From Escherichia coli (GTDB lineage Bacteria; Pseudomonadota; Gammaproteobacteria; Enterobacterales; Enterobacteriaceae), in assembly GCF_030384885.1 (NCBI RefSeq), contig NZ_CP128613.1: a DNA stretch of 64,000 nucleotides, one strand, 5' to 3'. This document shows positions 5,519-59,331 of this stretch, in pieces (within the stretch, counting starts at the first letter, position 1; each line of letters starts with the position of its first letter). The notes below the pieces were generated by a model, which saw only the letters and a list, made by a program, of their open reading frames with translations, searched no databases and was not told the origin of the DNA. The position numbers were made by a program, and so were the translations under genes.

Positions 5519-6007
5519 TCATTTCACACGCGCCATATAATACGCATCGACATATTCACCGTTTCGTAATGCGTACTTCTTGCCAGTCCCTTCAATCTCA
5601 AAGCCGAATTTTTTATAGACCTTAATTGCTGGCGCGTTATCAACGAACACCGTTAGTTCAATACGATCTACCCGCAACCAGTTGTCGCACATTGCAATCA
5701 TCTCTCGCATCAGGGCGCTGGCGACGCCGCGGTTCTTCCAGCGGGAGTCGACACAGATACCAAAGTCGGCAACATGACTGCGGCGTGGGCGTTGTTGCAC
5801 GTCAATAGTGAGATGACCCACAACGTCTCCATCAATACAGGCGACGAGTTGCTTGATGCCGGGACGATCGGCGAGTCGCTCCTGCCACATATGATCGGAA
5901 GGATGAGGCACCTGTAGTGTGTTGCAATACACCTCCGGCTGGGCGTGAATCTGCCTGATGGCCTCGTAATCCCGTGTTTCTGCATGGCGTATTACTATCT
6001 CACTCAT
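5519..6007 (-). CDS. yhhY: GNAT-family N-acetyltransferase YhhY
   Basis: Start set at MSEIVIRHAETRDYEAIRQIH...; acetyl-CoA binding motif region RGVASALM. Confidence 0.85.
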   Translation of the reverse strand: MSEIVIRHAETRDYEAIRQIHAQPEVYCNTLQVPHPSDHMWQERLADRPGIKQLVACIDGDVVGHLTIDVQQRPRRSHVADFGICVDSRWKNRGVASALMREMIAMCDNWLRVDRIELTVFVDNAPAIKVYKKFGFEIEGTGKKYALRNGEYVDAYYMARVK

Positions 6008-6094
6008 TCCTTTGTCCTCTTTGGGGTAAATGTCCCTTTCAACATCATTGACTTTCAAATGCGAGTCAAATGCATTTTTTTGCAAAAAGTGTTG

Positions 6095-6128
6095 GACAAG
6101 TGCGAATGAGAATGATTATTATTGTCTC
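6095..6128 (+). promoter_or_regulatory. ryhB promoter with Fur box
   Basis: aatgagaatgattattatt resembles the Fur consensus gataatgataatcattatc and lies immediately upstream of the RyhB 5' end. Confidence 0.6.
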
Positions 6129-6218
6129 GCGATCAGGAAGACCCTCGCGGAGAACCTGAAAGCACGACATTGCTCACATTGCTTCCAGTATTACTTAGCC
6201 AGCCGGGTGCTGGCTTTT
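6129..6218 (+). ncRNA. ryhB: RyhB small regulatory RNA (Fur-repressed, iron-sparing)
   Basis: Sequence gcgatcaggaagaccctcgcggagaacctgaaagcacgacattgctcacattgcttccagtattacttagccagccgggtgctggcttttttttt matches RyhB as I recall it, including the terminal hairpin and U-run; located between yhhY and yhhX. Confidence 0.9.
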
Positions 6219-6341
6219 TTTTTGACCTTTCGTTCTCAATTTATCCACGGGAAGTGCTTGTGTTTGTTATGCGCACTCCTGTAGGAACCGCGTCCGCTTT
6301 GCGCTAAGGTGGTAGATAACCACCTTAAAAAGGACGAAATC

Positions 6342-7379
6342 ATGGTCATCAACTGCGCCTTTATTGGCTTCGGCAAAAGCACCACCCGTTACCATCTGCC
6401 GTATGTACTTAACCGCAAGGATAGCTGGCATGTCGCGCATATTTTTCGCCGCCATGCGAAGCCGGAAGAACAGGCTCCCATTTATTCCCATATTCATTTC
6501 ACCAGCGATCTCGACGAAGTGCTAAACGATCCCGACGTTAAGTTGATTGTCGTCTGCACTCATGCGGACAGCCACTTCGAGTACGCGAAACGCGCGCTGG
6601 AAGCCGGGAAAAATGTGCTGGTCGAAAAACCGTTCACCCCGACACTTGCGCAGGCGAAAGAGCTGTTTGCGCTGGCGAAAAGCAAAGGGCTGACCGTTAC
6701 GCCGTATCAGAATCGTCGCTTTGACTCCTGTTTTCTGATGGCGAAAAAAGCGATTGAAAGCGGCAAGCTGGGAGAGATTGTCGAAGTGGAAAGCCATTTT
6801 GACTATTACCGCCCGGTGGCAGAAACCAAACCTGGACTGCCGCAGGATGGCGCGTTCTATGGCCTTGGTGTGCATACCCTCGACCAGATAATCTCGCTGT
6901 TCGGTCGCCCGGATCACGTCGCTTATGACATCCGCAGCCTGCGTAATAAAGCCAATCCTGACGACACCTTCGAAGCGCAGCTGTTTTATGGCGATCTAAA
7001 AGCCATCGTCAAAACCAGCCATCTGGTGAAAATCGATTATCCGAAATTTATCGTTCACGGGAAGAAAGGTTCGTTTATTAAATATGGTATCGACCAGCAG
7101 GAAACCAGCCTGAAGGCTAATATTATGCCGGGCGAGCCGGGATTCGCAGCGGATGATTCGGTCGGTGTGCTGGAGTATGTCAATGACGAGGGCGTTACGG
7201 TCAGAGAAGAGATGAAGCCGGAGATGGGCGATTACGGACGCGTTTATGATGCGTTGTACCAAACCATCACCAACGGTGCACCAAATTACGTCAAGGAATC
7301 TGAAGTTCTTACCAATCTGGAAATCCTTGAACGCGGTTTTGAGCAAGCCTCTCCCTCCACAGTGACTCTTGCGAAGTAA
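6342..7379 (+). CDS. yhhX: Gfo/Idh/MocA-family NAD(P)-dependent oxidoreductase YhhX
   Basis: Start set at MVINCAFIGFGKSTTRYHLPY (Rossmann GxGxxG-like N-terminus); 345 aa. Confidence 0.88.
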   Translation: MVINCAFIGFGKSTTRYHLPYVLNRKDSWHVAHIFRRHAKPEEQAPIYSHIHFTSDLDEVLNDPDVKLIVVCTHADSHFEYAKRALEAGKNVLVEKPFTPTLAQAKELFALAKSKGLTVTPYQNRRFDSCFLMAKKAIESGKLGEIVEVESHFDYYRPVAETKPGLPQDGAFYGLGVHTLDQIISLFGRPDHVAYDIRSLRNKANPDDTFEAQLFYGDLKAIVKTSHLVKIDYPKFIVHGKKGSFIKYGIDQQETSLKANIMPGEPGFAADDSVGVLEYVNDEGVTVREEMKPEMGDYGRVYDALYQTITNGAPNYVKESEVLTNLEILERGFEQASPSTVTLAK

Positions 7380-23131: not shown

Positions 23132-24649
23132 ATGGAAAGAATAATGCAAAACAGAAAATGGATTTTGACCTCGCTGATAATGACTTTTTTCGGCATCCCC
23201 ATACTGGCGCAATTTTTGGCAGCGGTTATTGCCATGCTGGGGGCCGGGCTTGCCGCTATTCTTGAGGCTTGCAATTTACTCTTTACGCCAACAATTTATC
23301 TTCTACTCAACGTCTTTATGCTGACGCTGGGGGCGATAATCCTATTTTTCTCTGGTCGCGTGTGGGCCGGTGATAGCGCACCAGAAAACAGAGAAATAGC
23401 CGTCTGGCGGCAATGCTTTTTTCTTTTACCTGCACTGTTAACTCTGGTTGGCTGGATAATCACGCTACATCTGGCAGATTATCAATTTCGCCAAATGGGA
23501 GCAGGTTGGTTGGCAGAGCTTATGCTCCCCTGGCTGGGAGTTTTGTTAGTCTCATTAGTCGGAGGTGAGTTCTGGTGGATAGTCATTATACCCGTTGGTG
23601 CGCATATTAGTTTTTCGCTGGGGTATGGCTGGCCGACCAGATATCCTTTAACCGGCACGTACGGGTTACGTTGCCGTAATTCCCTCCTGTTTATCCTTCT
23701 CATGCTTGGTTTTATCGCTGGTTATCAGGCTTATTTATATAAACAGATTAATCCCGGCGTCGGTGTGCGTGAAAATATTGATACCTGGGCCTGGCGACCC
23801 GATAAACTCAATAATCAACTGACGCCACTGCGTGGTAAACCGCAAATTCAGTTTACACAAAACTGGCCGCGACTCGATGGTGCTACGGCGGCGTACCCAA
23901 TTTATGCTTCTGCCTTTTATGCGTTGAGCGTTATACCGGAAGATTTCCACACATGGGAATATCTGGAGAACTCTCGTACCCCCGATGCATATAACAGGAT
24001 TGTTAAAGGTGATGCCGATATTATTTTTGTGGCGCAACCTTCCGGTGGGCAGAAAAAACGTGCAGAGGAATCGGGCGTCACTTTGAACTACACTCCTTTC
24101 GCCCGTGAAGCATTCGTTTTCATCGTCAATGCGGATAACCCGGTTAATTCCCTGACTGACCAACAGGTGCGTGACATCTTCAGTGGCGCAATTACCAACT
24201 GGCGTACTGTTGGCGGTAACGATCAGGAGATCCAGACCTGGCAACGCCCGGAAGACTCTGGCAGCCAGACAGTGATGCAATCGCAGGTCATGAAAAATGT
24301 CCGCATGATCTCGCCGCAGGAAACCGAAGTGGCAAGCATGATGGAGGGAATGATTAAAGTTGTTGCCGAATACCGTAATACAAACAACTCAATAGGCTAC
24401 ACCTTCCGCTATTACGCAACACAAATGAATGCCGATAAAAATATAAAACTGCTAGCTATTAACGGTATTGCACCGACTGCGGAAAATATTCGTAACGGCA
24501 AATATCCATATATCGTCGATGCCTTTATGGTAACGCGGGAAAATACTACGTCAGAAACACAAAAACTGGTCGAATGGTTTTTAACGCCGCAGGGGCAGAG
24601 TCTGGTGGAAGATGTGGGTTATGTACCGTTGCATACAACAATGAAATAA
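23132..24649 (+). CDS. islet 1 gene 1: polytopic membrane domain fused to a PstS-like (phosphate-binding-protein fold) periplasmic domain
   Basis: 505-aa ORF; residues about 1-200 form several hydrophobic helices; the C-terminal part shows PstS-like motifs (AAYPIYASAF; QRPEDSGSQTVM, compare PstS RADGSGTS; SIGYTFRYYA). Function not assigned. Confidence 0.7.
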   Translation: MERIMQNRKWILTSLIMTFFGIPILAQFLAAVIAMLGAGLAAILEACNLLFTPTIYLLLNVFMLTLGAIILFFSGRVWAGDSAPENREIAVWRQCFFLLPALLTLVGWIITLHLADYQFRQMGAGWLAELMLPWLGVLLVSLVGGEFWWIVIIPVGAHISFSLGYGWPTRYPLTGTYGLRCRNSLLFILLMLGFIAGYQAYLYKQINPGVGVRENIDTWAWRPDKLNNQLTPLRGKPQIQFTQNWPRLDGATAAYPIYASAFYALSVIPEDFHTWEYLENSRTPDAYNRIVKGDADIIFVAQPSGGQKKRAEESGVTLNYTPFAREAFVFIVNADNPVNSLTDQQVRDIFSGAITNWRTVGGNDQEIQTWQRPEDSGSQTVMQSQVMKNVRMISPQETEVASMMEGMIKVVAEYRNTNNSIGYTFRYYATQMNADKNIKLLAINGIAPTAENIRNGKYPYIVDAFMVTRENTTSETQKLVEWFLTPQGQSLVEDVGYVPLHTTMK

Positions 24650-24674
24650 CTTTTGAGAGAACGGAATCAGCGCG

Positions 24675-25667
24675 ATGAATAAATTCATAGGCGTTTTACT
24701 GCTAGGTGCGGTTTTACTGGCGGGATGTGTCGACCGGGAAGGCTACTATAACAGCGTCAGGGAAGAAGACAGCCATGGACTGACGACTCTGCGGGGGCAA
24801 CCTGAATTACGTTACAACGATGATTGGTCAAGATGGCCGAGAGTATACGGCGCTACAGCCTTATACCCGCTGTATGCCTCCGCGTATTATGAATTAGTAC
24901 CCGAGCCAAAAGATAAGGATCGAACCTCGCTGGCCTGGCAGGCGTATGGTTTGCAACAAACCCGAACAGCTGAAGCCTACGATAGTCTGATCAAGGGTAC
25001 CGCGACGGTTATTTTTGTTGCACAACCGTCGGAAGGACAGAAAAAACGTGCAGAAGAAGCAGGCGTTAAACTGAAATATACCGCGTTTGCCCGCGAAGCC
25101 TTTGTCTTTATCGTTGATATCAAAAACCCGGTTAATTCACTTAGCGAACAGCAGGTCAAAGACATTTTTAGCGGTAAAGTGAGTCGCTGGAATAAAGTGG
25201 GCGGCGGTGACGAAAGTATAAAAGTCTGGCAGCGGCCAGAAGATTCTGGAAGCCAAACGGTTATGAAGGGACTGGTTATGCAAGATACTCCAATGCTGCC
25301 AGCCAAAAAATCCACTGTTATCGATCTTATGGGCGGTTTAATTACCGAAGTCGCCGACTACCAAAACACAACATCTTCCATTGGATACACCTTCCACTAT
25401 TACGTCACACGTATGAATGACAATATGCTCAAAATGCGCAAACAGATCAAACTGCTAGCTATAACTGGCATTGCGCCTACAGAGGAAAATATCCGTAACG
25501 GCACTTATCCGTACATAATTGATGCTTATATGGTGACGCACGAAACCCCTGCGCTGGAAACGCAGAAATTCGTCGACTGGTTTTTAAGCCCGCAGGGACA
25601 GCAATTGGTAGAGGATGTGGGGTATGTGCCGATTCATGACGCATCATACGAATCATCAGTGCAATAA
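24675..25667 (+). CDS. islet 1 gene 2: lipoprotein with PstS-like substrate-binding domain
   Basis: 330 aa; lipobox LLAGC; same motifs as the gene-1 C-terminal domain (ALYPLYASAYY; QRPEDSGSQTVM; SIGYTFHYY). Confidence 0.72.
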   Translation: MNKFIGVLLLGAVLLAGCVDREGYYNSVREEDSHGLTTLRGQPELRYNDDWSRWPRVYGATALYPLYASAYYELVPEPKDKDRTSLAWQAYGLQQTRTAEAYDSLIKGTATVIFVAQPSEGQKKRAEEAGVKLKYTAFAREAFVFIVDIKNPVNSLSEQQVKDIFSGKVSRWNKVGGGDESIKVWQRPEDSGSQTVMKGLVMQDTPMLPAKKSTVIDLMGGLITEVADYQNTTSSIGYTFHYYVTRMNDNMLKMRKQIKLLAITGIAPTEENIRNGTYPYIIDAYMVTHETPALETQKFVDWFLSPQGQQLVEDVGYVPIHDASYESSVQ

Positions 25668-26269
25668 TGATGAATAAAATCAGACTTTATATTCCTCCGT
25701 TAATTCTTGGTTTTGTTATTGTGCCGTTGTTGGTGTGGCCGACGGTGGTTGCGCTGGCTGCTTCTGTTATCACGCTGAGTTTTCTGGGAGAGATACTGTT
25801 CTCTATCCCGCTCATGATCAGGCGTATTTCACTTCTGCAATTACAACTATGGTTATCGGCTGAATATGCGCTTTTCTTCTGTGCAATGGTGGGCGTTGGT
25901 TGGCAATTTGCGCGCAGAACGCCACCTGAATTGAAAAGCAGACTGCATTGTTGGCTGGTATTTGCACCAGTTTATTTCTGGTTGCTCCTGTGGAATATCA
26001 TTTTCTATGTCGCGCCAGCGAATATTGCGTTGCTGGAGAATATGCGCAGTTTCTTTCTGACAGTTGTCTGGCTCCCACTGAATTTTTCGCCATTTTGGTC
26101 TCAACCGTGGATTGACTTTGTCGGTCCAATAAGCGCACAGCTTGGTTTTGCGTTGGGATATTATTGCCAGTGGCGTAGCAAAAATAGAAGCCAGATACGG
26201 AAGTGGAGTGAGTGGGGAACGTGCCTGAGTTTTGTTACGTTGGGTATGATGGCGTGGGCTTTGCGGTAA
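25667..26269 (+). CDS. islet 1 gene 3: small polytopic membrane protein, paralog of the gene-1 N-terminal domain
   Basis: 200 aa, 4-6 hydrophobic segments; PISAQLGFALGYYCQW resembles PVGAHISFSLGYGW in gene 1; start ATG overlaps the gene-2 stop (TAATG). Confidence 0.65.
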   Translation: MMNKIRLYIPPLILGFVIVPLLVWPTVVALAASVITLSFLGEILFSIPLMIRRISLLQLQLWLSAEYALFFCAMVGVGWQFARRTPPELKSRLHCWLVFAPVYFWLLLWNIIFYVAPANIALLENMRSFFLTVVWLPLNFSPFWSQPWIDFVGPISAQLGFALGYYCQWRSKNRSQIRKWSEWGTCLSFVTLGMMAWALR

Positions 26270-26376
26270 TTCCCTGACTCAAAAAGTAGGTCAGATTGTT
26301 GACAAAGTGCGCTTTGTTCATGCCGGATGCGACATGAACGTCTTATTGGCCTACAAGACCATGCAAATTGTAGTGG

Positions 26377-27626
<1,250 letters not shown>

Positions 27627-33181: not shown

Positions 33182-34408
33182 ATGAATTACGAATTACTGA
33201 CCACTGAAAATGCCCCGGTAAAAATGTGGACCAAAGGCGTGCCGGTAGAGGCCGATGCGCGTCAGCAACTTATTAATACGGCGAAGATGCCGTTTATTTT
33301 CAAACATATTGCGGTAATGCCGGATGTACACCTGGGTAAAGGTTCCACCATTGGTAGCGTGATCCCAACCAAAGGAGCGATTATTCCGGCGGCGGTGGGG
33401 GTAGATATCGGTTGTGGAATGAACGCACTGCGAACTGCGTTAACGGCGGCTGACCTGCCTGAAAACCTGGCGGAGCTGCGTCAGGCGATTGAAACTGCCG
33501 TGCCGCACGGACGTTCCAATAATCGTAGCCGTCGTGATAAAGGCGCATGGGAGCATCCGCCTGTTAACGTCGATGCTAAATGGGCCGAGCTGGAAGCTGG
33601 TTATCAGTGGTTAACGCAAAAATATCCGCGTTTCCTTAACACTAATAACTATAAACATCTGGGAACGCTGGGAACGGGTAACCACTTTATTGAAATCTGC
33701 CTTGATGAGTCGGACCAGGTGTGGATTATGCTGCACTCCGGTTCACGCGGAATTGGTAATGCCATCGGGACTTACTTTATCGATCTGGCACAAAAAGAGA
33801 TGCAGGAAACGCTTGAAACGTTGCCATCGCGTGACCTGGCGTACTTTATGGAAGGTACGGAATACTTTGATGATTACCTGAAAGCGGTGGCCTGGGCGCA
33901 GCTTTTTGCCAGCCTTAACCGCGATGCGATGATGGAAAATGTGGTAACGGCGTTGCAGAGCGTTACGCAGAAAACGGTAAGACAGCCACAAACGCTGGCG
34001 ATGGAAGAGATCAACTGTCACCACAACTATGTGCAAAAAGAACAGCACTTTGGCGAAGAGATCTATGTGACGCGTAAAGGCGCGGTGTCTGCGCGTGCTG
34101 GTCAATATGGAATTATTCCCGGTTCGATGGGGGCGAAAAGCTTTATTGTCCGTGGGCTGGGAAATGAAGAGTCGTTCTGTTCGTGCAGCCACGGTGCCGG
34201 GCGGGTAATGAGCCGTACTAAAGCGAAAAAACTGTTCAGCGTGGAAGATCAAATTCGTGCCACCGCGCATGTGGAATGCCGTAAAGATGCCGAAGTGATC
34301 GACGAAATCCCGATGGCGTATAAAGATATCGACGCGGTGATGGCGGCACAAAGCGATCTGGTGGAAGTTATCTACACCCTGCGTCAGGTGGTGTGTGTAA
34401 AAGGATAA
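33182..34408 (+). CDS. rtcB: RNA-splicing ligase RtcB
   Basis: 408 aa; conserved RtcB metal/GTP-binding His/Cys motifs. Confidence 0.95.
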   Translation: MNYELLTTENAPVKMWTKGVPVEADARQQLINTAKMPFIFKHIAVMPDVHLGKGSTIGSVIPTKGAIIPAAVGVDIGCGMNALRTALTAADLPENLAELRQAIETAVPHGRSNNRSRRDKGAWEHPPVNVDAKWAELEAGYQWLTQKYPRFLNTNNYKHLGTLGTGNHFIEICLDESDQVWIMLHSGSRGIGNAIGTYFIDLAQKEMQETLETLPSRDLAYFMEGTEYFDDYLKAVAWAQLFASLNRDAMMENVVTALQSVTQKTVRQPQTLAMEEINCHHNYVQKEQHFGEEIYVTRKGAVSARAGQYGIIPGSMGAKSFIVRGLGNEESFCSCSHGAGRVMSRTKAKKLFSVEDQIRATAHVECRKDAEVIDEIPMAYKDIDAVMAAQSDLVEVIYTLRQVVCVKG

Positions 34409-48233: not shown

Positions 48234-48470
48234 TTAACGTAACGCCCACCACTCACGCAGACAGGCTTTGCCTTCCGGGCAGCTTTTACAACTCCCGGAG
48301 AGGCAGCCGTCAGGTTCTTCCTGAATTCGCACGGCTTTGCCCATACTTTCCAGCTGTTGCAGCATGGCGTTAATCATGGGTTGCGGAGTGTTCAATGTCT
48401 GGCTTATCTGGGCCGCTTCCATACGGCCCCGTAATGCCAGCAAATCACGCACCTGAATGAGCGAAGCCAT
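48234..48470 (-). CDS. feoC: ferrous iron transport protein FeoC
   Basis: Start set at [15 protein letters not shown]; winged-helix plus Cys-rich tail; 78 aa. Confidence 0.85.
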
Positions 48471-48480
48471 TGCTGTATCC

Positions 48481-50802
48481 TTAGTGGCAATCGCCAGTGG
48501 TGCTGGCTGCACAGCAACTGCTTACCGATTTGCGTGTTGCCAGCAGTTCGATATCGACCCGGCTACGTGCGCGACGCAGCAAACCGATAACCACGATGTT
48601 AAACAGGATAACCGCCAGAATGCACACCAGGCTGTAAGTTGGGTGCTGGCTGTAGCTGGCGACCTGGTAGAACAATGTTGCCAGTGAGTAAGCAATATTC
48701 AGCCCCCACAGGATGGAGAAGCCCATCCAGCCACGGCTTGATTCACGGGCGATGGCCCCCATCACCGAGATACACGGTACATACAGCAGAACGAAAATCA
48801 GGTAGCTGTAAGCAGCTGCTGCGCTTCCAAATTTCTGATCCATCACGCCCATCGCTCCGGTACCCATTTCACCGTCGCCTTTGCTCGCTTCAATGGGGTT
48901 CATCAGTACGCTAAGACTGAAGGTGTCTTTCAGACTCTGCCAGGTTTCATCTACCGCGCTGAATAGCTCTTCACCGAGGTTAAATTCCGCCGGATTGAAC
49001 TCTTCATCCTGAATATTTTCTGCGGTGTAGAGAGTGTTGAGCGTACCCACTACCACTTCTTTCGCCATTGCGCCCGTGAACAGGCCAACTGTTGCCTGCC
49101 AGTTATCTTCATGTACACCAATCGGCTTGAAGACCGGGGTGATCACCCGACTAACGGAAGCCAATGCGGAGTCGTTGATGTTATCGACGATTTTCCCGCT
49201 CAGAGAGAAGCTGTTGAAAGCGCTCAGGAAAATGCTGACGATGATAATCACTTTACCAGCACGCAGAACGAAACCTTTCAGACGCTGCCAGGTCTGGATA
49301 ATCAGGCTTTTAACGTGTGGTACATGGTAGACCGGTAGCTCCATGACAAACGGCGTCGCTTCACCGCGCATGATGGTGTACTTGAGCATCAGGCCAGTCA
49401 GCACCGCCATCACAATACCGAGCATATACAGCGAGAAGACCGCCAGCGCACCGTTCTGCCCGAAGAAGGCAGCCGCGAATACGGCGAAGATAGCCAGACG
49501 CGCGCCGCAGGACATAAACGGTGCCATCATGATGGTCATCAGACGTTCACGCGGTGCATCAAGCGTACGTGCGCCCATTACCGACGGTACGTTACAACCG
49601 AAACCAACGATCAGCGGTACAAAGGATTTCCCGGGCAAGCCCAGCGCCTGCATCAGACGGTCCATCACAAACGCCGCACGCGCCATATAGCCGGAGTCCT
49701 CGAGGAAGGAGAGGAACAGGTACATCATGCCGATCTGTGGCACCAGTGGCAGAACGGTGTTAATACCGCCCCCCAGGCCCTGGGCGAGGAAGATAGTCAG
49801 CCAGTCCGGGAAGTGGAGCGTGTAGCCAATCCACTGAATACCATGCACAAATAGCGCCACGGAGCCGACGTCAAACAGTGGCTGTAACGCCCCGCCGATG
49901 TTGATAGCCAACAGGAACATCAGGTACATCACAAAGAGGAAAATCGGCAGACCGAGGAAACGGTTGAGCACGATTTTATCTACCGCAGTGGTGAAACGGC
50001 TGGGTTCTGCCGTCAGGGTGTTGCTTACCACATCACAGATGGCAGCAATGCACTGGTAACGCGCATCGGCAATGTGCAGCGCCGGATCGTCCATCTCATT
50101 ACGCAGACGGGCGAGGGCGGCATCAAGATGCTGCGACGCTTCACCGGCGTAGGCGCGGCTGTAGATATCGCCTTCCAGCATTTGCAGGCCCAGCCAGCGA
50201 CGTTGTTTGAGCGGGATGTCGGAAGGCATCACTTTTGCCAGTGAATCTGCTTCGTTGAGCAGCGGCTGTGCGTAATGCACCAGTTCCACATTCTCGTTAG
50301 CTTTATAGCGATCAATCGCCAGCTTGAGCGCTTCAATACCGCGACCACGAGTTGAAACCAGCGGGATCACCGGGCAGCCAAGACGTGCCGACAGAGCATC
50401 AATTTCAATGCGAATATTTTGCTTCTCGGCAATGTCGAGCATGTTCAGCGCCACGATGCAGGGAATGCCGAGTTCCAGCAGTTGTAGCGTCAGGTACAGG
50501 TTACGCTCAAGGTTAGACGCATCCACCACGTTAATCAGCAGGTCAGCGTCGCCACTCAAAATGTAGTGACAGGCGATTTGCTCATCGAGCGAGGTCTGCG
50601 ATGAGATGGTGGTCAGAGAATAGGTGCCGGGGAGGTCCACCAGCGTGACCTGATGATCGGTGGTGGAGAATTGCCCTTCTTTACGTTCGACGGTAACGCC
50701 AGCCCAGTTACCTACACGCTGGCGCGCGCCGGTGAGCTGGTTAAATAAGGTTGTCTTGCCAGAATTTGGATTACCAATTAAGCCAATGGTTAATTTTTTC
50801 AT
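48481..50802 (-). CDS. feoB: ferrous iron transporter FeoB (GTPase plus permease)
   Basis: Start set at [21 protein letters not shown] (G1 motif); large polytopic C-terminal domain. Confidence 0.95.
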
Positions 50803-50818
50803 TGTTGTTATCACCGTA

Positions 50819-51046
50819 TTAACAGGAAACCGCTTCCACTTCTAATAAGGCCAGATCTTTTTTGCGTAATACCAGGCTCACACGACGGGTTTCGATATGA
50901 ATGGGGTCGCCAAGTGGAGCGACGCGCACCACATTAAAAGAGGAGCCAGGTAACATGCCAAGAGAAAGCAGTTTTTGGCGATATGCCGGGCTGATTTCAC
51001 GGGAAAAGCCAGTGATTTTCCACGCAGTATCTGGAGTGTATTGCAT
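50819..51046 (-). CDS. feoA: ferrous iron transport protein FeoA
   Basis: 75-aa SH3-like ORF upstream of feoB. Confidence 0.9.
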
Positions 51047-51154
51047 AGGTGCCTACTTGTTTCTCATTAACTGGATAACTACCTCATGGGGCGTTTGACA
51101 GCGACATGAGACCAGATGATTTGCCAACAAAGGAGAGATTAAATAATCAACAAC

Positions 51155-51177
51155 ACAATGATAATGAGAATGGTTTC
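51155..51177 (-). promoter_or_regulatory. candidate Fur box in the feoABC promoter region
   Basis: aatgataatgagaatggtttc resembles the Fur consensus, about 110 bp upstream of the feoA start. Confidence 0.45.
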
Positions 51178-51430
51178 TATCAGCAATACTTAAAATGTGT
51201 GCGAATGTTGGTTTAGATAATAATCTGCGTGAATGTTGATGTGGCTCAAGGTTATATCGCAGCGAAAATATAATTCGAATGGCGAATTATCAGGGCGGGT
51301 TAATGTTTAATTAAGGTTTCATTTGTTAATTAAGTGATAAATATTGACGAAATATAGTGTGAGTTTCGTTGTGGAATAAAAATGCCGGAGATATTCTCCG
51401 GCATTTTTATGTCAGGCATGGCGTTTATTG

Positions 51431-51464
51431 CCAGATGCGGCGTGAACGCCTGATCTGGCCTACG
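51431..51464. repeat. REP element
   Basis: gccagatgcggcgtgaacgcctgatctggcctac is a classic REP sequence. Confidence 0.75.
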
Positions 51465-51502
51465 ATCTTGTGCAAATTCGAACCGTAGGCCAATCAGGAG
51501 GT

Positions 51503-53824
51503 TTAACGTTTTTTGCCCATTGCCGCCGCCAGCGCATCCATCATCGCGCTGTTACCGGCAGGCTGCGCTTCACGACCGCGTGGTTTGGCTGCCGGGCGGT
51601 TGTTTTGCGGGCGTTCATTACCGCCCCCGCGACGGGCGTTGGTTTCGCCAGGCTGCTCGTCCAGACGCATAGTCAGGGCGATACGTTTACGCTGAAGATC
51701 CACTTCCAGCACTTTCACCTTCACAATGTCGCCCGCTTTCACCACGGTATGCGGATCTTCCACAAACTTGTTCGACAATGAAGAGATGTGAACCAGGCCG
51801 TCCTGATGTACGCCAATATCGACAAACGCGCCAAAGTTGGTGACGTTGGTCACCGCACCTTCGAGGATCATACCCGGTTGCAGGTCGTTCATTGTCTCGA
51901 CGCCATCGGCAAACTGGGCGGTTTTAAATTCCGGACGCGGATCGCGACCCGGTTTTTCCAGCTCTTTGATGATGTCGGTTACCGTCGGCACACCGAATTT
52001 CTCATCAGTAAAGTCAGACGCTTTCAGGTTACGCAGTTCGCTGCTGTTACCCATCAGATCTTTCAGTGCCTGCTGTGTTGCTGCCAGAATGCGTTCCACC
52101 ACCGGATAGGCTTCCGGGTGAACAGTAGAGGCGTCCAGCGGGTTGTCACCGTGGTTAATGCGCAAGAAGCCTGCGCACTGCTCGAAGGCTTTTGGCCCCA
52201 GGCGGCTGACTTTTAACAGTTGCTGGCGGTTCTGGAACTGGCCGTTCTCATCGCGCCAGGCCACAATGTTTTGCGCCATCATGCGCGTCAGGCCCGCCAC
52301 GCGGGTTAACAGCGGAACGGAAGCGGTGTTGAGATCGACGCCAACGGCGTTTACGCAGTCTTCTACTACTGCATCCAGTTTGCGGGCCAGCTGCGTCTGG
52401 CTGACGTCATGCTGATACTGACCTACGCCGATAGATTTCGGATCGATTTTCACCAGCTCCGCCAGCGGATCCTGCAAACGACGGGCGATAGACACCGCGC
52501 CACGCAGCGAAACATCGAGATCCGGGAACTCCTGCGCTGCCAGCTCGGAAGCCGAGTAAACCGACGCGCCTGCTTCGCTGACGATCACTTTCTGTGCGGT
52601 CACTTTCGGAAACTGCTTCTGAACGTCGAGATAGAAACGCTCAGTTTCGCGGGAAGCCGTACCGTTACCGATTGCCACCAGTTCAACGTTATGTTTTTCA
52701 CACAAGGCAGCAACGGTCATCGCTGCTTTTGCGGCTTGTCCGGTGTGCGGATAAATGGTGTCGGTCGCCACCAGTTTACCCGTCGCATCGACTACCGCCA
52801 CTTTTACCCCGGTACGCAGACCCGGATCGAGGCCCATCGTCGCACGCAGTCCGGCTGGGGCCGCCATCAGCAGATCGTGCAGGTTACGGGCAAAGACGTT
52901 GATTGCTTCATCTTCTGCACGTTCGCGCACTGTACCCATCAGTTCGGTTTCCAGGTGCATCAGCACCTTGATGCGCCAGGTCCAGCTCACCACGCCTTTG
53001 CGCCAGCTATCCGCCGGGGCATTGTTCAGGCGCAGACCGAGGTGATCCATGATGATTTGCTCGCAATAGCTCTCTTTTGGCGGTTCGTCGAACTGCGGAT
53101 CGGCATTTAGCGAAAGCTGGAGTACGCCTTCGTTACGCCCACGGAACATCGCCAGCGCGCGGTGAGAAGGCACCGTTGACAGCGGTTCGTGATGATCGAA
53201 ATAGTCGCGGAATTTCGCCCCTTCCTCTTCTTTACCGTTCACCACCGTAGAAACCAAATGCGCGTTCTTCCACAGATAATCACGCACTTTCGCCAGCAGC
53301 GCGGCATCTTCGGCAAACCGTTCCATCAGGATATAGCGCGCGCCGTCCAGCGCGGCTTTGGTATCTGCTACGCCTTTATCGGCATCAACATATTGTGCAG
53401 CGGCGACTTCTGGCGTGTGCGACGGATCGTTCCACAGTAGGTCGGCCAGTGGCTCAAGTCCTGCTTCAATAGCAATTTGCCCGCGGGTGCGGCGTTTAGG
53501 TTTGTAGGGCAGGTAGAGGTCTTCGAGTTCGGTTTTGCTTAAGGTGGCGTTGATAGCATTCGCCAGCTCGTCGGTCAGTTTGCCTTGCTCGGAAATGGAC
53601 TTGAGGATTGCCTGACGTCTCTCTTCCAGCTCGCGCAAATAGCTCAGACGCGTTTCCAGATTACGCAGTTGCGTGTCATCCAGACCGCCGGTGATTTCCT
53701 TACGATAACGTGCGATAAACGGCACGGTATTCCCTTCGTCAAGCAGGCGAACGGCAGCGTCAACCTGTTCCGGGCGCGCCTGAATTTCACCCGCAATAAT
53801 GCGGCAGAACGAATCATTCATCAT
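51503..53824 (-). CDS. yhgF: Tex-like RNA-binding protein YhgF (S1 domain)
   Basis: 773 aa; C-terminal S1 domain and basic tail. Confidence 0.93.
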
Positions 53825-56856: not shown

Positions 56857-58140
56857 ATGCAACTTACCAACGAAGAACAAGTACAGATTGCTCGTATAAA
56901 AGAAAAAATCCCACGCATTGCCGCACTGGATCCTGAATGTAAGTTATTCGGTTCTGAAGGTTGGAAATATCAATGGCCGAAGCCTGCCAGCGAGGCGGAA
57001 ATAGCTTCCTGGGAGAAAAAACATAGCGTCACTTTGCCACGGGAATATCGAATTTTTCTTCGCTATATCGCTAATGGCGGTCCGGCACATGCCTACGGTC
57101 TTGAATCTTTAGGCGGTACAGATATTTATGGCGATATAACAAAAGAAAGCCCTGTACCGCTTTATATGACGCAGCAGGATGTTGATGTGTTGAATGCTGG
57201 CCGTACAGAAGATGATGAAGAATATAGTTTTTTTGACGGCGCATTGACCATTCTCACCCTGGGATGTACTTATGATATTTGCCTGGTGGTGACGGGGCAG
57301 TATCGCGGAAGGTTAATGCTGACTGATGGTGATGAAGATTATCCGTTTGATTTTATATATGATAAAAATTTCCTCAACTGGTATGAACGCTGGCTGGACG
57401 ATTTTATTGCTGGCATGAGTATGAAGGGTTTCGATAGAAGTTTGCCAGGAACGCAAATTCAACTGCGTGAGTGGTTTTTAACTGAGAAAATCCCGGATTT
57501 ACGTAGATCCATTTTATTCTCGCTATGCCGTTTTCCACAGATAGAACCCGAAACTTTTGCCCTTTGGGAACATGTTTGCCGTACAGAGAATGATAAAGAA
57601 TTGTGTGAAGAGGCATTCATAAGATTACGCCAAAAAAAAGTTTCTTGTGCTGCAGATATTTTTCGACTCTATTTTGCAATGTCAGATGAATTACGTGATA
57701 TTGCTATTAAAGATCTCCGTTTTGCCTGTAGAGATAGTGTGGTGAATATTGAGGATTATATTCATTCACTGTTAATAATAATGCCTGAACTTGACGATGA
57801 CACTCTATCCTCAGCTGTCTTTGCTATACGAGAAACAGAGTATAATAAATATGATACTTTTCTGCCGCTTCTCGAACGTATCACTGATGACCGTCAGCAA
57901 ACATTATTGTGGGCGATGAGTAAGGCGCCTGATTTCAATGAAAGCCGAGGATTCGTTGAGTTGGTATTACCGCTTTTTGCATCATCAAAGATGGAGAATG
58001 TAAGGAAGGCTATTTTGTTGCTCATTGAAGTTAAAGATAATCGTATTCCACCATTGGTTGATGAAGCTGCAACTCGTTTCCCTGAACTGACCATTTTACG
58101 AGAAAACTACTATCTCAGGACGTGGGGACATAAGCCATAA
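56857..58140 (+). CDS. islet 2 ORF A: SUKH (SMI1/KNR4)-like N-terminal domain fused to a C-terminal alpha-helical repeat (HEAT/ARM-like) domain
   Basis: ATG at 56857 with AAAGGA Shine-Dalgarno 8 nt upstream; N-terminal motif SWEKKHSVTLPREYRIFLRYIANGG and YDKNFLNWYERWLDDFI typical of SMI1/KNR4; C-terminal half has repeated helix pairs. Confidence 0.7.
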   Translation: MQLTNEEQVQIARIKEKIPRIAALDPECKLFGSEGWKYQWPKPASEAEIASWEKKHSVTLPREYRIFLRYIANGGPAHAYGLESLGGTDIYGDITKESPVPLYMTQQDVDVLNAGRTEDDEEYSFFDGALTILTLGCTYDICLVVTGQYRGRLMLTDGDEDYPFDFIYDKNFLNWYERWLDDFIAGMSMKGFDRSLPGTQIQLREWFLTEKIPDLRRSILFSLCRFPQIEPETFALWEHVCRTENDKELCEEAFIRLRQKKVSCAADIFRLYFAMSDELRDIAIKDLRFACRDSVVNIEDYIHSLLIIMPELDDDTLSSAVFAIRETEYNKYDTFLPLLERITDDRQQTLLWAMSKAPDFNESRGFVELVLPLFASSKMENVRKAILLLIEVKDNRIPPLVDEAATRFPELTILRENYYLRTWGHKP

Positions 58141-58177
58141 ATTAATGGTTCAGAAATGATCTAACGCGGAGAAAAAT

Positions 58178-58708
58178 ATGATCAGGGAACATATTCAGCA
58201 AGCGATAAATAATAGGTTAGCATTTGATGGCCCATTCAATGTTGTTCCTGAACCTGCAAGCACTGCGTTTGATAGCCGGATCCCGACATTGAAAAACGGT
58301 GTCTGGCAGAAGGCCAGCCCTATGTTGCAGGCGCGTTTTGCACATTGTGGACGTTGGTTAAGCGCTACACATGGAAGCTGGCTAAGTATAAGTGACATGG
58401 AAACGCTTTGGCAGGAACACATAGAAGATACGTTTCTTGATGAAATCAAAATGAATGCTGTAGCTTCAAGTGATAATTGGGATAACCATGCCTTGGGACT
58501 ATTTCGTTCTCATCGCCTGTCACTTTTTGCCGGTAGTGATTACAGTTATGAAATGGTTTTTCTCCTTTGGCTAGATAGTACCGTTGAGCCAGAGGTCTGG
58601 GTTTATGACTGCAATGGGGAATCACGTTATAAAGATCTTAATGATTACCTGAATGCATATATTAATGATGACGTAAGCGCCTGTGAGCGCTCTTGGCGAG
58701 TAGAATGA
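58178..58708 (+). CDS. islet 2 ORF B: hypothetical 176-aa cytoplasmic protein
   Basis: ATG with GGAG Shine-Dalgarno; no confident family assignment by eye; the C-terminal EPEVWVYDCNGESRYKDLNDYLNAYIN loosely resembles the C-terminal signature of SUKH-type immunity proteins. Confidence 0.55.
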   Translation: MIREHIQQAINNRLAFDGPFNVVPEPASTAFDSRIPTLKNGVWQKASPMLQARFAHCGRWLSATHGSWLSISDMETLWQEHIEDTFLDEIKMNAVASSDNWDNHALGLFRSHRLSLFAGSDYSYEMVFLLWLDSTVEPEVWVYDCNGESRYKDLNDYLNAYINDDVSACERSWRVE

Positions 58709-59331
58709 ATAGCCCCCCTTGCCCCTTTGATCCACAAACCGCACATTACCTCGGCACAGTGCAAATCCACTACACCTCAACCACCTTCAACGCTGCCGTT
58801 AAGCATTATACCTATCACATTAAAAAGCGTTTTAAAGGGGTTAAATGGGGAATTGGTACCGCTGGCTTATTGGCTATATTGCCCATGATCCCACAATGGT
58901 TGAAACCTTCTCATGACTTTAAACTCAACGCAATCAGTACGTTAATTCTTCTATTAATGTTGCCACTCCTCTTATCAATGTTCCTGTTAATCAGCAGAAG
59001 AATTAACGATTTTAAGTCAAAAACAAAGCAAGTTACTTTTACGAAACCCGTGCGTTATGCGTTTTATTTCGAGGGGATTGTTTTTTATGAATCTCATCAG
59101 CAGGGCATACTTCGCTGGGAAGATTTTTATGGCATTGAGTATGAAGAAGATTATTTGTGGCTTTTTCTGCATTTACCGAAGAGTTTTCCCAGAGAAGCGA
59201 CGAAAGCGTTTTGCGATATTTTCATTCCCACCAGTGCGATAAAAGCGCAGCCTGAACTGGATACGTTTTTTCGTGAAACACGCCACTCGCTGGATTATCT
59301 GTTTGTCCCGTTTAATTCTGACAGAAAATAA
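58705..59331 (+). CDS. islet 2 ORF C: small membrane protein, possibly YcxB-like (two TM helices plus a PH-like domain)
   Basis: ATG at 58705 overlaps the ORF B stop (ATGA); two hydrophobic helices (GIGTAGLLAILPMIPQWL; ISTLILLLMLPLLLSMFLLI) followed by a soluble domain. Confidence 0.6.
   Translation: MNSPPCPFDPQTAHYLGTVQIHYTSTTFNAAVKHYTYHIKKRFKGVKWGIGTAGLLAILPMIPQWLKPSHDFKLNAISTLILLLMLPLLLSMFLLISRRINDFKSKTKQVTFTKPVRYAFYFEGIVFYESHQQGILRWEDFYGIEYEEDYLWLFLHLPKSFPREATKAFCDIFIPTSAIKAQPELDTFFRETRHSLDYLFVPFNSDRK

Follow-up and report, generated by a model that had tools for sequence, protein, structure and literature searches.

RyhB and its control by Fur have been textbook knowledge since 2002, and the repression by Fur, the need for Hfq and the decay of target mRNAs are established for the Escherichia coli K-12 allele, which is identical to the copy described here. 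The mechanism reportedly goes back to Masse and Gottesman in 2002 and to later work. As summarised in two papers (PMC4211561 and PMC2189734), RyhB is repressed by Fe2+-Fur, binds Hfq, represses translation and leads to RNase E-dependent decay of its targets, and it also activates a few of them, such as shiA. Salmonella RfrA (RyhB-1) and RfrB (RyhB-2, IsrE) and Yersinia RyhB1 and RyhB2 share the family, the Fur control and the conserved core with the copy studied here. RfrA, reported to be 82% identical to E. coli RyhB, and Yersinia RyhB1 lie in the same genomic context as E. coli ryhB (PMC4211561). Salmonella and Yersinia carry a second, island-borne sibling, whereas our sequence holds one copy, which is the E. 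coli allele. The Pseudomonas RNAs PrrF1 and PrrF2 (RF00444) are functional analogues, Fur-repressed and iron-sparing, but not homologous to RyhB; in a permissive local scan the PrrF model scored 21.3 bits here (E = 0.85), below its gathering score of 90.

Here we describe the ryhB locus in a 64,000-nucleotide stretch of E. coli DNA (the window). Gene annotation was taken from positions 3924818–3988817 of NZ_CP027579.1 (strain 2013C-4282), to which the window is 99.992% identical, with four substitutions and one single-base indel. Judged from its sequence, the locus is almost certainly the canonical single-copy E. coli ryhB, encoding a Fur-repressed, iron-sparing sRNA that would act through Hfq-dependent pairing, and feoABC, elsewhere in the window, would be an independent Fur-repressed operon.

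The ryhB gene and its conservation

The features of the locus are as follows.

5519–6007, minus strand: yhhY (N-acetyltransferase), divergent upstream neighbour and synteny marker (RefSeq annotation, open reading frame list)
6093–6122, plus strand: ryhB sigma-70 promoter, with −35 TGGACA at 6093–6098, an 18-nt spacer and −10 TATTAT at 6117–6122 (promoter scan, identity to K-12)
6102–6127, no strand assigned: Fur operator, overlapping sites in 3- and 6-bp register that cover the −10 hexamer (consensus match)
6129–6223, plus strand: RyhB sRNA (Rfam RF00057, identity to K-12 b4451)
6165–6197, plus strand: RyhB pairing core, nt 37–69 (identical to K-12)
6166–6174, plus strand: GACAUUGCU, RyhB nt 38–46, exact complement of sodB mRNA −4 to +5, a stretch that spans the start codon (checked against the K-12 sodB leader)
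6197–6223, plus strand: ryhB intrinsic terminator, a GC-rich 7-bp stem (6197–6215) followed by nine T (terminator scan, minimum free energy (MFE) fold, paired in the Rfam consensus structure)
6342–7379, plus strand: yhhX (oxidoreductase), downstream neighbour on the same strand as ryhB and synteny marker (RefSeq annotation, open reading frame list)

The Rfam covariance-model search that the preliminary description had proposed as a check on its RyhB call gave a match to RF00057 (RyhB) at 6158–6222 on the plus strand, with 83.1 bits (E = 3.6e-14) over the full model (1–67), above the gathering score of 55 bits, and a permissive local Rfam scan returned RF00057 as the sole significant family at the locus. 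The match starts at 6158 and not at 6129 because the model, only 67 nt long, spans the conserved core and terminator and omits the 5′ 29 nt of RyhB; the placement of RyhB at 6129–6218 is therefore unaffected. By direct alignment, positions 6001–6225, which run from the yhhY start through the promoter and Fur box to RyhB and its terminator, are 100% identical to E. coli K-12 MG1655. The K-12 record (NC_000913.3) annotates the ncRNA ryhB (b4451) over the equivalent of 6129–6223 (95 nt). Its first base is our 5′ end, 6129, and the span 6129–6218 is the classical 90-nt form, whose end falls inside the T tract. The earlier reading of an intact RyhB thus agrees both with the Rfam call and with the identity to b4451.

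The comparison with K-12 leaves no difference within the element: the nucleotides of promoter, Fur operator, RNA and terminator are all identical, and the yhhY/yhhX context and the complementarity to sodB are common to both. As far as its sequence goes, the element is one already known, identical to the laboratory reference allele. Differences start 3 nt past the T tract, in the ryhB–yhhX spacer, where there are seven in about 90 bp.

In the E. coli genome survey, no row from a PGAP-annotated RefSeq genome has a feature under ryhB, and only the curated K-12 record annotates the gene; in NZ_CP027579.1 the locus tag RS19705 is skipped. Since PGAP records do not list ryhB, a missing annotation there is not evidence that the gene is absent.

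Given that sibling RyhB genes are known in related genera (PMC4211561) and that mobile elements have inserted elsewhere in the window, the locus might have been a decayed or inactive RyhB, or a divergent island paralogue of the RyhB2/RfrB/IsrE type, and not a functional canonical gene. The identity to K-12 ryhB, promoter included, argues against this, as does the canonical enterobacterial context, in which yhhY and yhhX flank the gene (RefSeq annotation, open reading frame list and K-12 record). Copy number points the same way, with one RyhB match in the window by Rfam scan and, across E. coli, a median of one copy of the promoter and gene per genome, always chromosomal and never on plasmids. 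Because of the identity to an experimentally characterised allele, together with synteny, we treat decay or a paralogue as excluded, with a vanishingly small probability of being correct.

The canonical gene is close to invariant in the species. Of 5,426 complete E. coli genomes, 5,424 carry the promoter and gene (6090–6225, 136 bp), and in 5,413 the identity is at least 99%, whereas the adjoining ryhB–yhhX spacer (6224–6345, 122 bp) is only 90–95% identical in most of the 5,426 genomes. In a seven-strain alignment, the invariant block ends within a few bases of the T tract. A nearly invariant gene next to a spacer that varies by 5–10% indicates, at the level of sequence comparison, purifying selection on the ryhB promoter, operator and RNA.

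A rare natural variant of RyhB occurs in the clinical isolate E. coli 23AR0151 (NZ_CP195448.1), with 93.8% identity compared with at least 99% in the 5,413 genomes. It carries a 9-nt tandem duplication of ACATTGCTC in the pairing core, at the equivalent of approximately 6167–6175; a third copy is thereby added to the imperfect repeat ACATTGCTC/ACATTGCTT that RyhB naturally has.

The spacer of the window is itself unusual, being at least 99% identical only in the strain's own record among the 5,426 genomes. Two changes, an added G at 6312 and an A to G at 6316, were seen in the window alone in the seven-strain alignment. Through them a weak 7-bp hairpin becomes a perfect palindrome with 9-bp arms, TAAGGTGGT-agata-ACCACCTTA (6306–6328), shortly before the yhhX ribosome-binding site. 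It folds at −12.7 kcal/mol (z = −2.8), compared with −7.9 kcal/mol (z = −1.4) in K-12. It is conceivable, though we regard it as a long shot, that in this lineage the completed palindrome affects how yhhX is expressed or how far Fur-dependent transcription from ryhB reads through into yhhX.

Promoter, terminator and Fur operator

The promoter scan places the −10 hexamer 7 nt ahead of the start at 6129. At the other end of the gene, both the terminator scan and the MFE fold show a rho-independent hairpin with a U tail, the usual Hfq-binding module in RyhB's class of sRNAs. The MFE of the whole molecule is indistinguishable from that of shuffled sequences (z = −0.67). This is often so for Hfq-dependent sRNAs whose pairing regions are long and single-stranded, and it does not speak against the identity of RyhB.

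Fur sites were scored by consensus matching with empirical nulls and not by a weight matrix. The 7-1-7 motif TGAGAATGATTATTA at 6107–6121 has two mismatches to TGATAATNATTATCA and is centred on 6114, which corresponds to −15. It is overlapped by the 19-mer GAGAATGATTATTATTGTC at 6108–6126, which matches the classical Fur consensus at 16 of 19 positions, and by GCGAATGAGAATGATTATT at 6102–6120, with 14 of 19. TGAGAATGATTATTA and GAGAATGATTATTATTGTC are each the single best match to their own form of the consensus in the 64 kb. Chen et al. 2007 (PMC2189734) described a 25.2-bit Fur site at −15 of ryhB, confirmed by gel shift and overlapping two weaker sites, and the centre of the 7-1-7 motif in the window coincides with this published position. 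The consensus scan and the published position together put a Fur operator over the ryhB promoter; the −10 hexamer lies wholly within it, and promoter occlusion therefore follows from the geometry.

A chance resemblance has to be weighed here: with an AT-rich, palindromic consensus such as that of Fur, partial matches are frequent in AT-rich promoters, and the ‘Fur box’ could simply be an AT-rich −10 region. The window does hold seven other 7-1-7 sites with three mismatches, mostly within genes, and the total of eight sites with at most three mismatches compares with 2.06 expected. However, the ryhB site ranks first among approximately 128,000 positions by both forms of the consensus, and when the 64 kb was resampled 100 times with a first-order Markov model, no resample scored 16 of 19; the best score was 15 (in eight resamples). 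The operator is also invariant across E. coli. Rank, resampling and the published gel shift together exclude chance resemblance in our view, and the residual probability that we would give it is negligible. The claim of an intact Fur box at ryhB is accordingly borne out, and we read the site as a genuine operator.

Target pairing and the feoABC operon

The 9-nt exact complement between RyhB and K-12 sodB is preserved in a pairing core identical to that of K-12. This complementarity is consistent with the established pairing, and the RyhB element is therefore, as judged by every available sequence criterion, functionally intact.

The second iron locus in the window is the feoABC operon. The extra G of the window at 33397 means that RefSeq coordinates transferred to this region need a correction of +1, which is included below.

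48234–51046, minus strand: feoABC, ferrous-iron transport operon (RefSeq annotation with the +1 correction)
50819–51046, minus strand: feoA (RefSeq annotation; ATG read directly at 51046)
48481–50802, minus strand: feoB (RefSeq annotation)
48234–48470, minus strand: feoC (RefSeq annotation)
51154–51184, no strand assigned: feoA-proximal Fur-like array of three overlapping 19-mers in 6-bp register, with 13, 13 and 12 of 19 matches (consensus scan)

The proximal array lies 117–129 nt upstream of the feoA ATG and includes the hexamer GATAAT in perfect form at 51160; another perfect copy, at 51216–51221, falls in the region of the distal site. Individually the sites are weak, given that 13 of 19 matches are reached at 26 of approximately 64,000 window positions, and they are much weaker than the ryhB operator. 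Relative to the feoA ATG, the Fur clusters predicted by Chen et al. (PMC2189734) convert to approximately −121/−127 and −180, which in the window corresponds to approximately 51167/51173 and 51226, within a few bases of the Fur-like hits, and the same authors note in vivo Fur binding at feo by Kammler et al. The phasing of the sites and their agreement with the published clusters suggest that feoABC belongs to the Fur regulon in this strain as well.

Gene order in feoABC is like that of K-12, and the proximal 175 nt upstream of feoA, including the proximal published Fur cluster, are identical to K-12. At the distal site two bases differ, and the window copy, with its perfect GATAAT, is closer to the consensus. 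Across the distal upstream region (approximately −175 to −330), divergence from K-12 is visibly greater than in the proximal 175 nt. Further out, in the yhgF–feoA interval (51380–51520, minus strand), yhgF has on its downstream side a terminator-like hairpin, GCCGGAGAATATCTCCGGC, with a run of T behind it, and adjoining the hairpin is a REP-like palindromic stretch, GCCTACG...CGTAGGC, followed by GGCGTTCACGCC.

The preliminary description had reported feoABC with a candidate Fur box, had named RyhB and feoABC as known Fur-regulated loci and had offered RyhB as an internal positive control for sequence-based annotation. The operon and its Fur-like sites are where it placed them, the gel-shifted site at ryhB and the in vivo binding at feo support the second point, and all checks on RyhB agree. 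Its statement that RyhB lies within 6 kb of two iron-related loci was wrong: feoABC is 42 kb and nfuA approximately 39 kb away, and the annotated genes within 6 kb of RyhB in RefSeq (ugpQ, yhhA, ggt, yrhB, yhhY, yhhX, yhhW, gntRKU and yhgN) include no iron loci.

The presence of RyhB and feoABC in one 64-kb window could still be taken as a linked iron neighbourhood, for example with RyhB targeting the feo or nfuA mRNAs in cis-proximity, and 7-nt complements to the RyhB core do occur at feoC −4 (AGCAATG) and feoB −36 (TGGAAGC). These have to be set against a contiguous-seed test over 50 gene starts of the window, in which the longest complement to the core was 8 nt (yhhY) and within shuffle expectation; complements of at least 8 nt arose in 45 of 1,000 shuffled leaders, and the sodB control gave 9 nt. 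RNAduplex on full-length RyhB against −60 to +30 of the same 50 gene starts was uninformative, with a median of −32 kcal/mol and a shuffle mean of −32.2 kcal/mol, and sodB was not distinct by this measure. Approximately 30 unrelated genes (carbohydrate, glycogen, maltose and rtc genes) separate the two loci, and the main text of a ribosome-profiling study of RyhB targets (PMC4666370) does not mention nfuA, feoA, feoB, yhhX, yhhY or glpD. We consider a linked neighbourhood very improbable. The co-occurrence of ryhB and feoABC is the normal E. coli map, with no functional link found beyond Fur as their repressor.

The wider window and the proposed mechanism

The window corresponds to the 3.54–3.58 Mb region of K-12 read on the opposite strand, with the following gene order.

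First part: ugpAECQ, yhhA, ggt, yrhB, yhhY, [ryhB], yhhX, yhhW, gntRKU, yhgN, asd, glgBXCAP, insert
Middle: glpD, glpEGR, rtcRBA, malT, malPQ, gntT, nfuA, gntX, bioH, rpnA
Last part: feoCBA, yhgF, greB, ompR-envZ, small insert, pckA, yhgE, hslO

The insert of approximately 4.4 kb between glgP and glpD (23141–27554) carries two genes for PstS-family phosphate-binding proteins, a hypothetical gene and an IS3 element; at this position K-12 presumably has only a remnant of the yzgL pseudogene. The only Rfam match at gathering level in the window other than RyhB, isrC (RF01387, 145 bits; 27436–27558, minus strand), coincides with the 5′ end of the IS3-family (ISEc31-like) transposase gene at 26377–27554 (minus strand). 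Copies of the matching 123 nt are found in 2,103 of 5,426 E. coli genomes, with as many as 16 places in a single genome and 473 places on plasmids. What the isrC model detects here is the end of an insertion sequence, not an sRNA gene in its own right.

The interval between envZ and pckA (approximately 56857–59331) holds three genes, coding for an SMI1/KNR4-family protein and two hypotheticals. Proteins of this family are often immunity proteins of polymorphic toxin systems, and the interval looks like a small orphan-immunity islet. It is AT-rich and the source of many weak matches to the Fur consensus. In rtcB (33182–34408, plus strand), the window has an intact open reading frame of 408 amino acids that includes the extra G at 33397, and RefSeq NZ_CP027579.1, which is without this G, lists the gene as a ‘frameshifted’ pseudogene. 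The difference goes back either to a sequencing error in NZ_CP027579.1 or to the window being from a sister assembly or a corrected one.

For the regulation of ryhB in this strain, the account established for K-12 would apply. When iron is sufficient, Fe2+-Fur dimers would occupy the operator at 6102–6127 over the −10 hexamer, shutting out RNA polymerase. Under iron limitation, Fur would leave the operator and the RyhB RNA of approximately 90 nt would be transcribed from 6129, with transcription predicted to end at the hairpin and U tract of 6197–6223. Bound to Hfq, its core (nt 37–69) would pair with the translation-initiation regions of the sodB, sdhCDAB, acnB, ftnA and bfr mRNAs, which encode non-essential iron-using proteins. 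Pairing would block translation and lead to RNase E-dependent decay of these mRNAs, the ‘iron-sparing’ response. The feoABC operon would take part as an independent Fur-repressed system for Fe2+ uptake that has only the repressor in common with ryhB. For this copy, what is shown is the identity of the sequence, where the motifs lie and how strong they are statistically, the conservation of the locus and its complementarity to sodB; the steps of repression, Hfq binding and decay come from established knowledge.

Given that this ryhB copy is identical to the reference allele, it adds nothing new on iron regulation. The result serves as quality control and validates, for this window, the sequence-based annotation of the preliminary description, which placed a 90-nt sRNA, its transcription start and its operator to the base from raw sequence.
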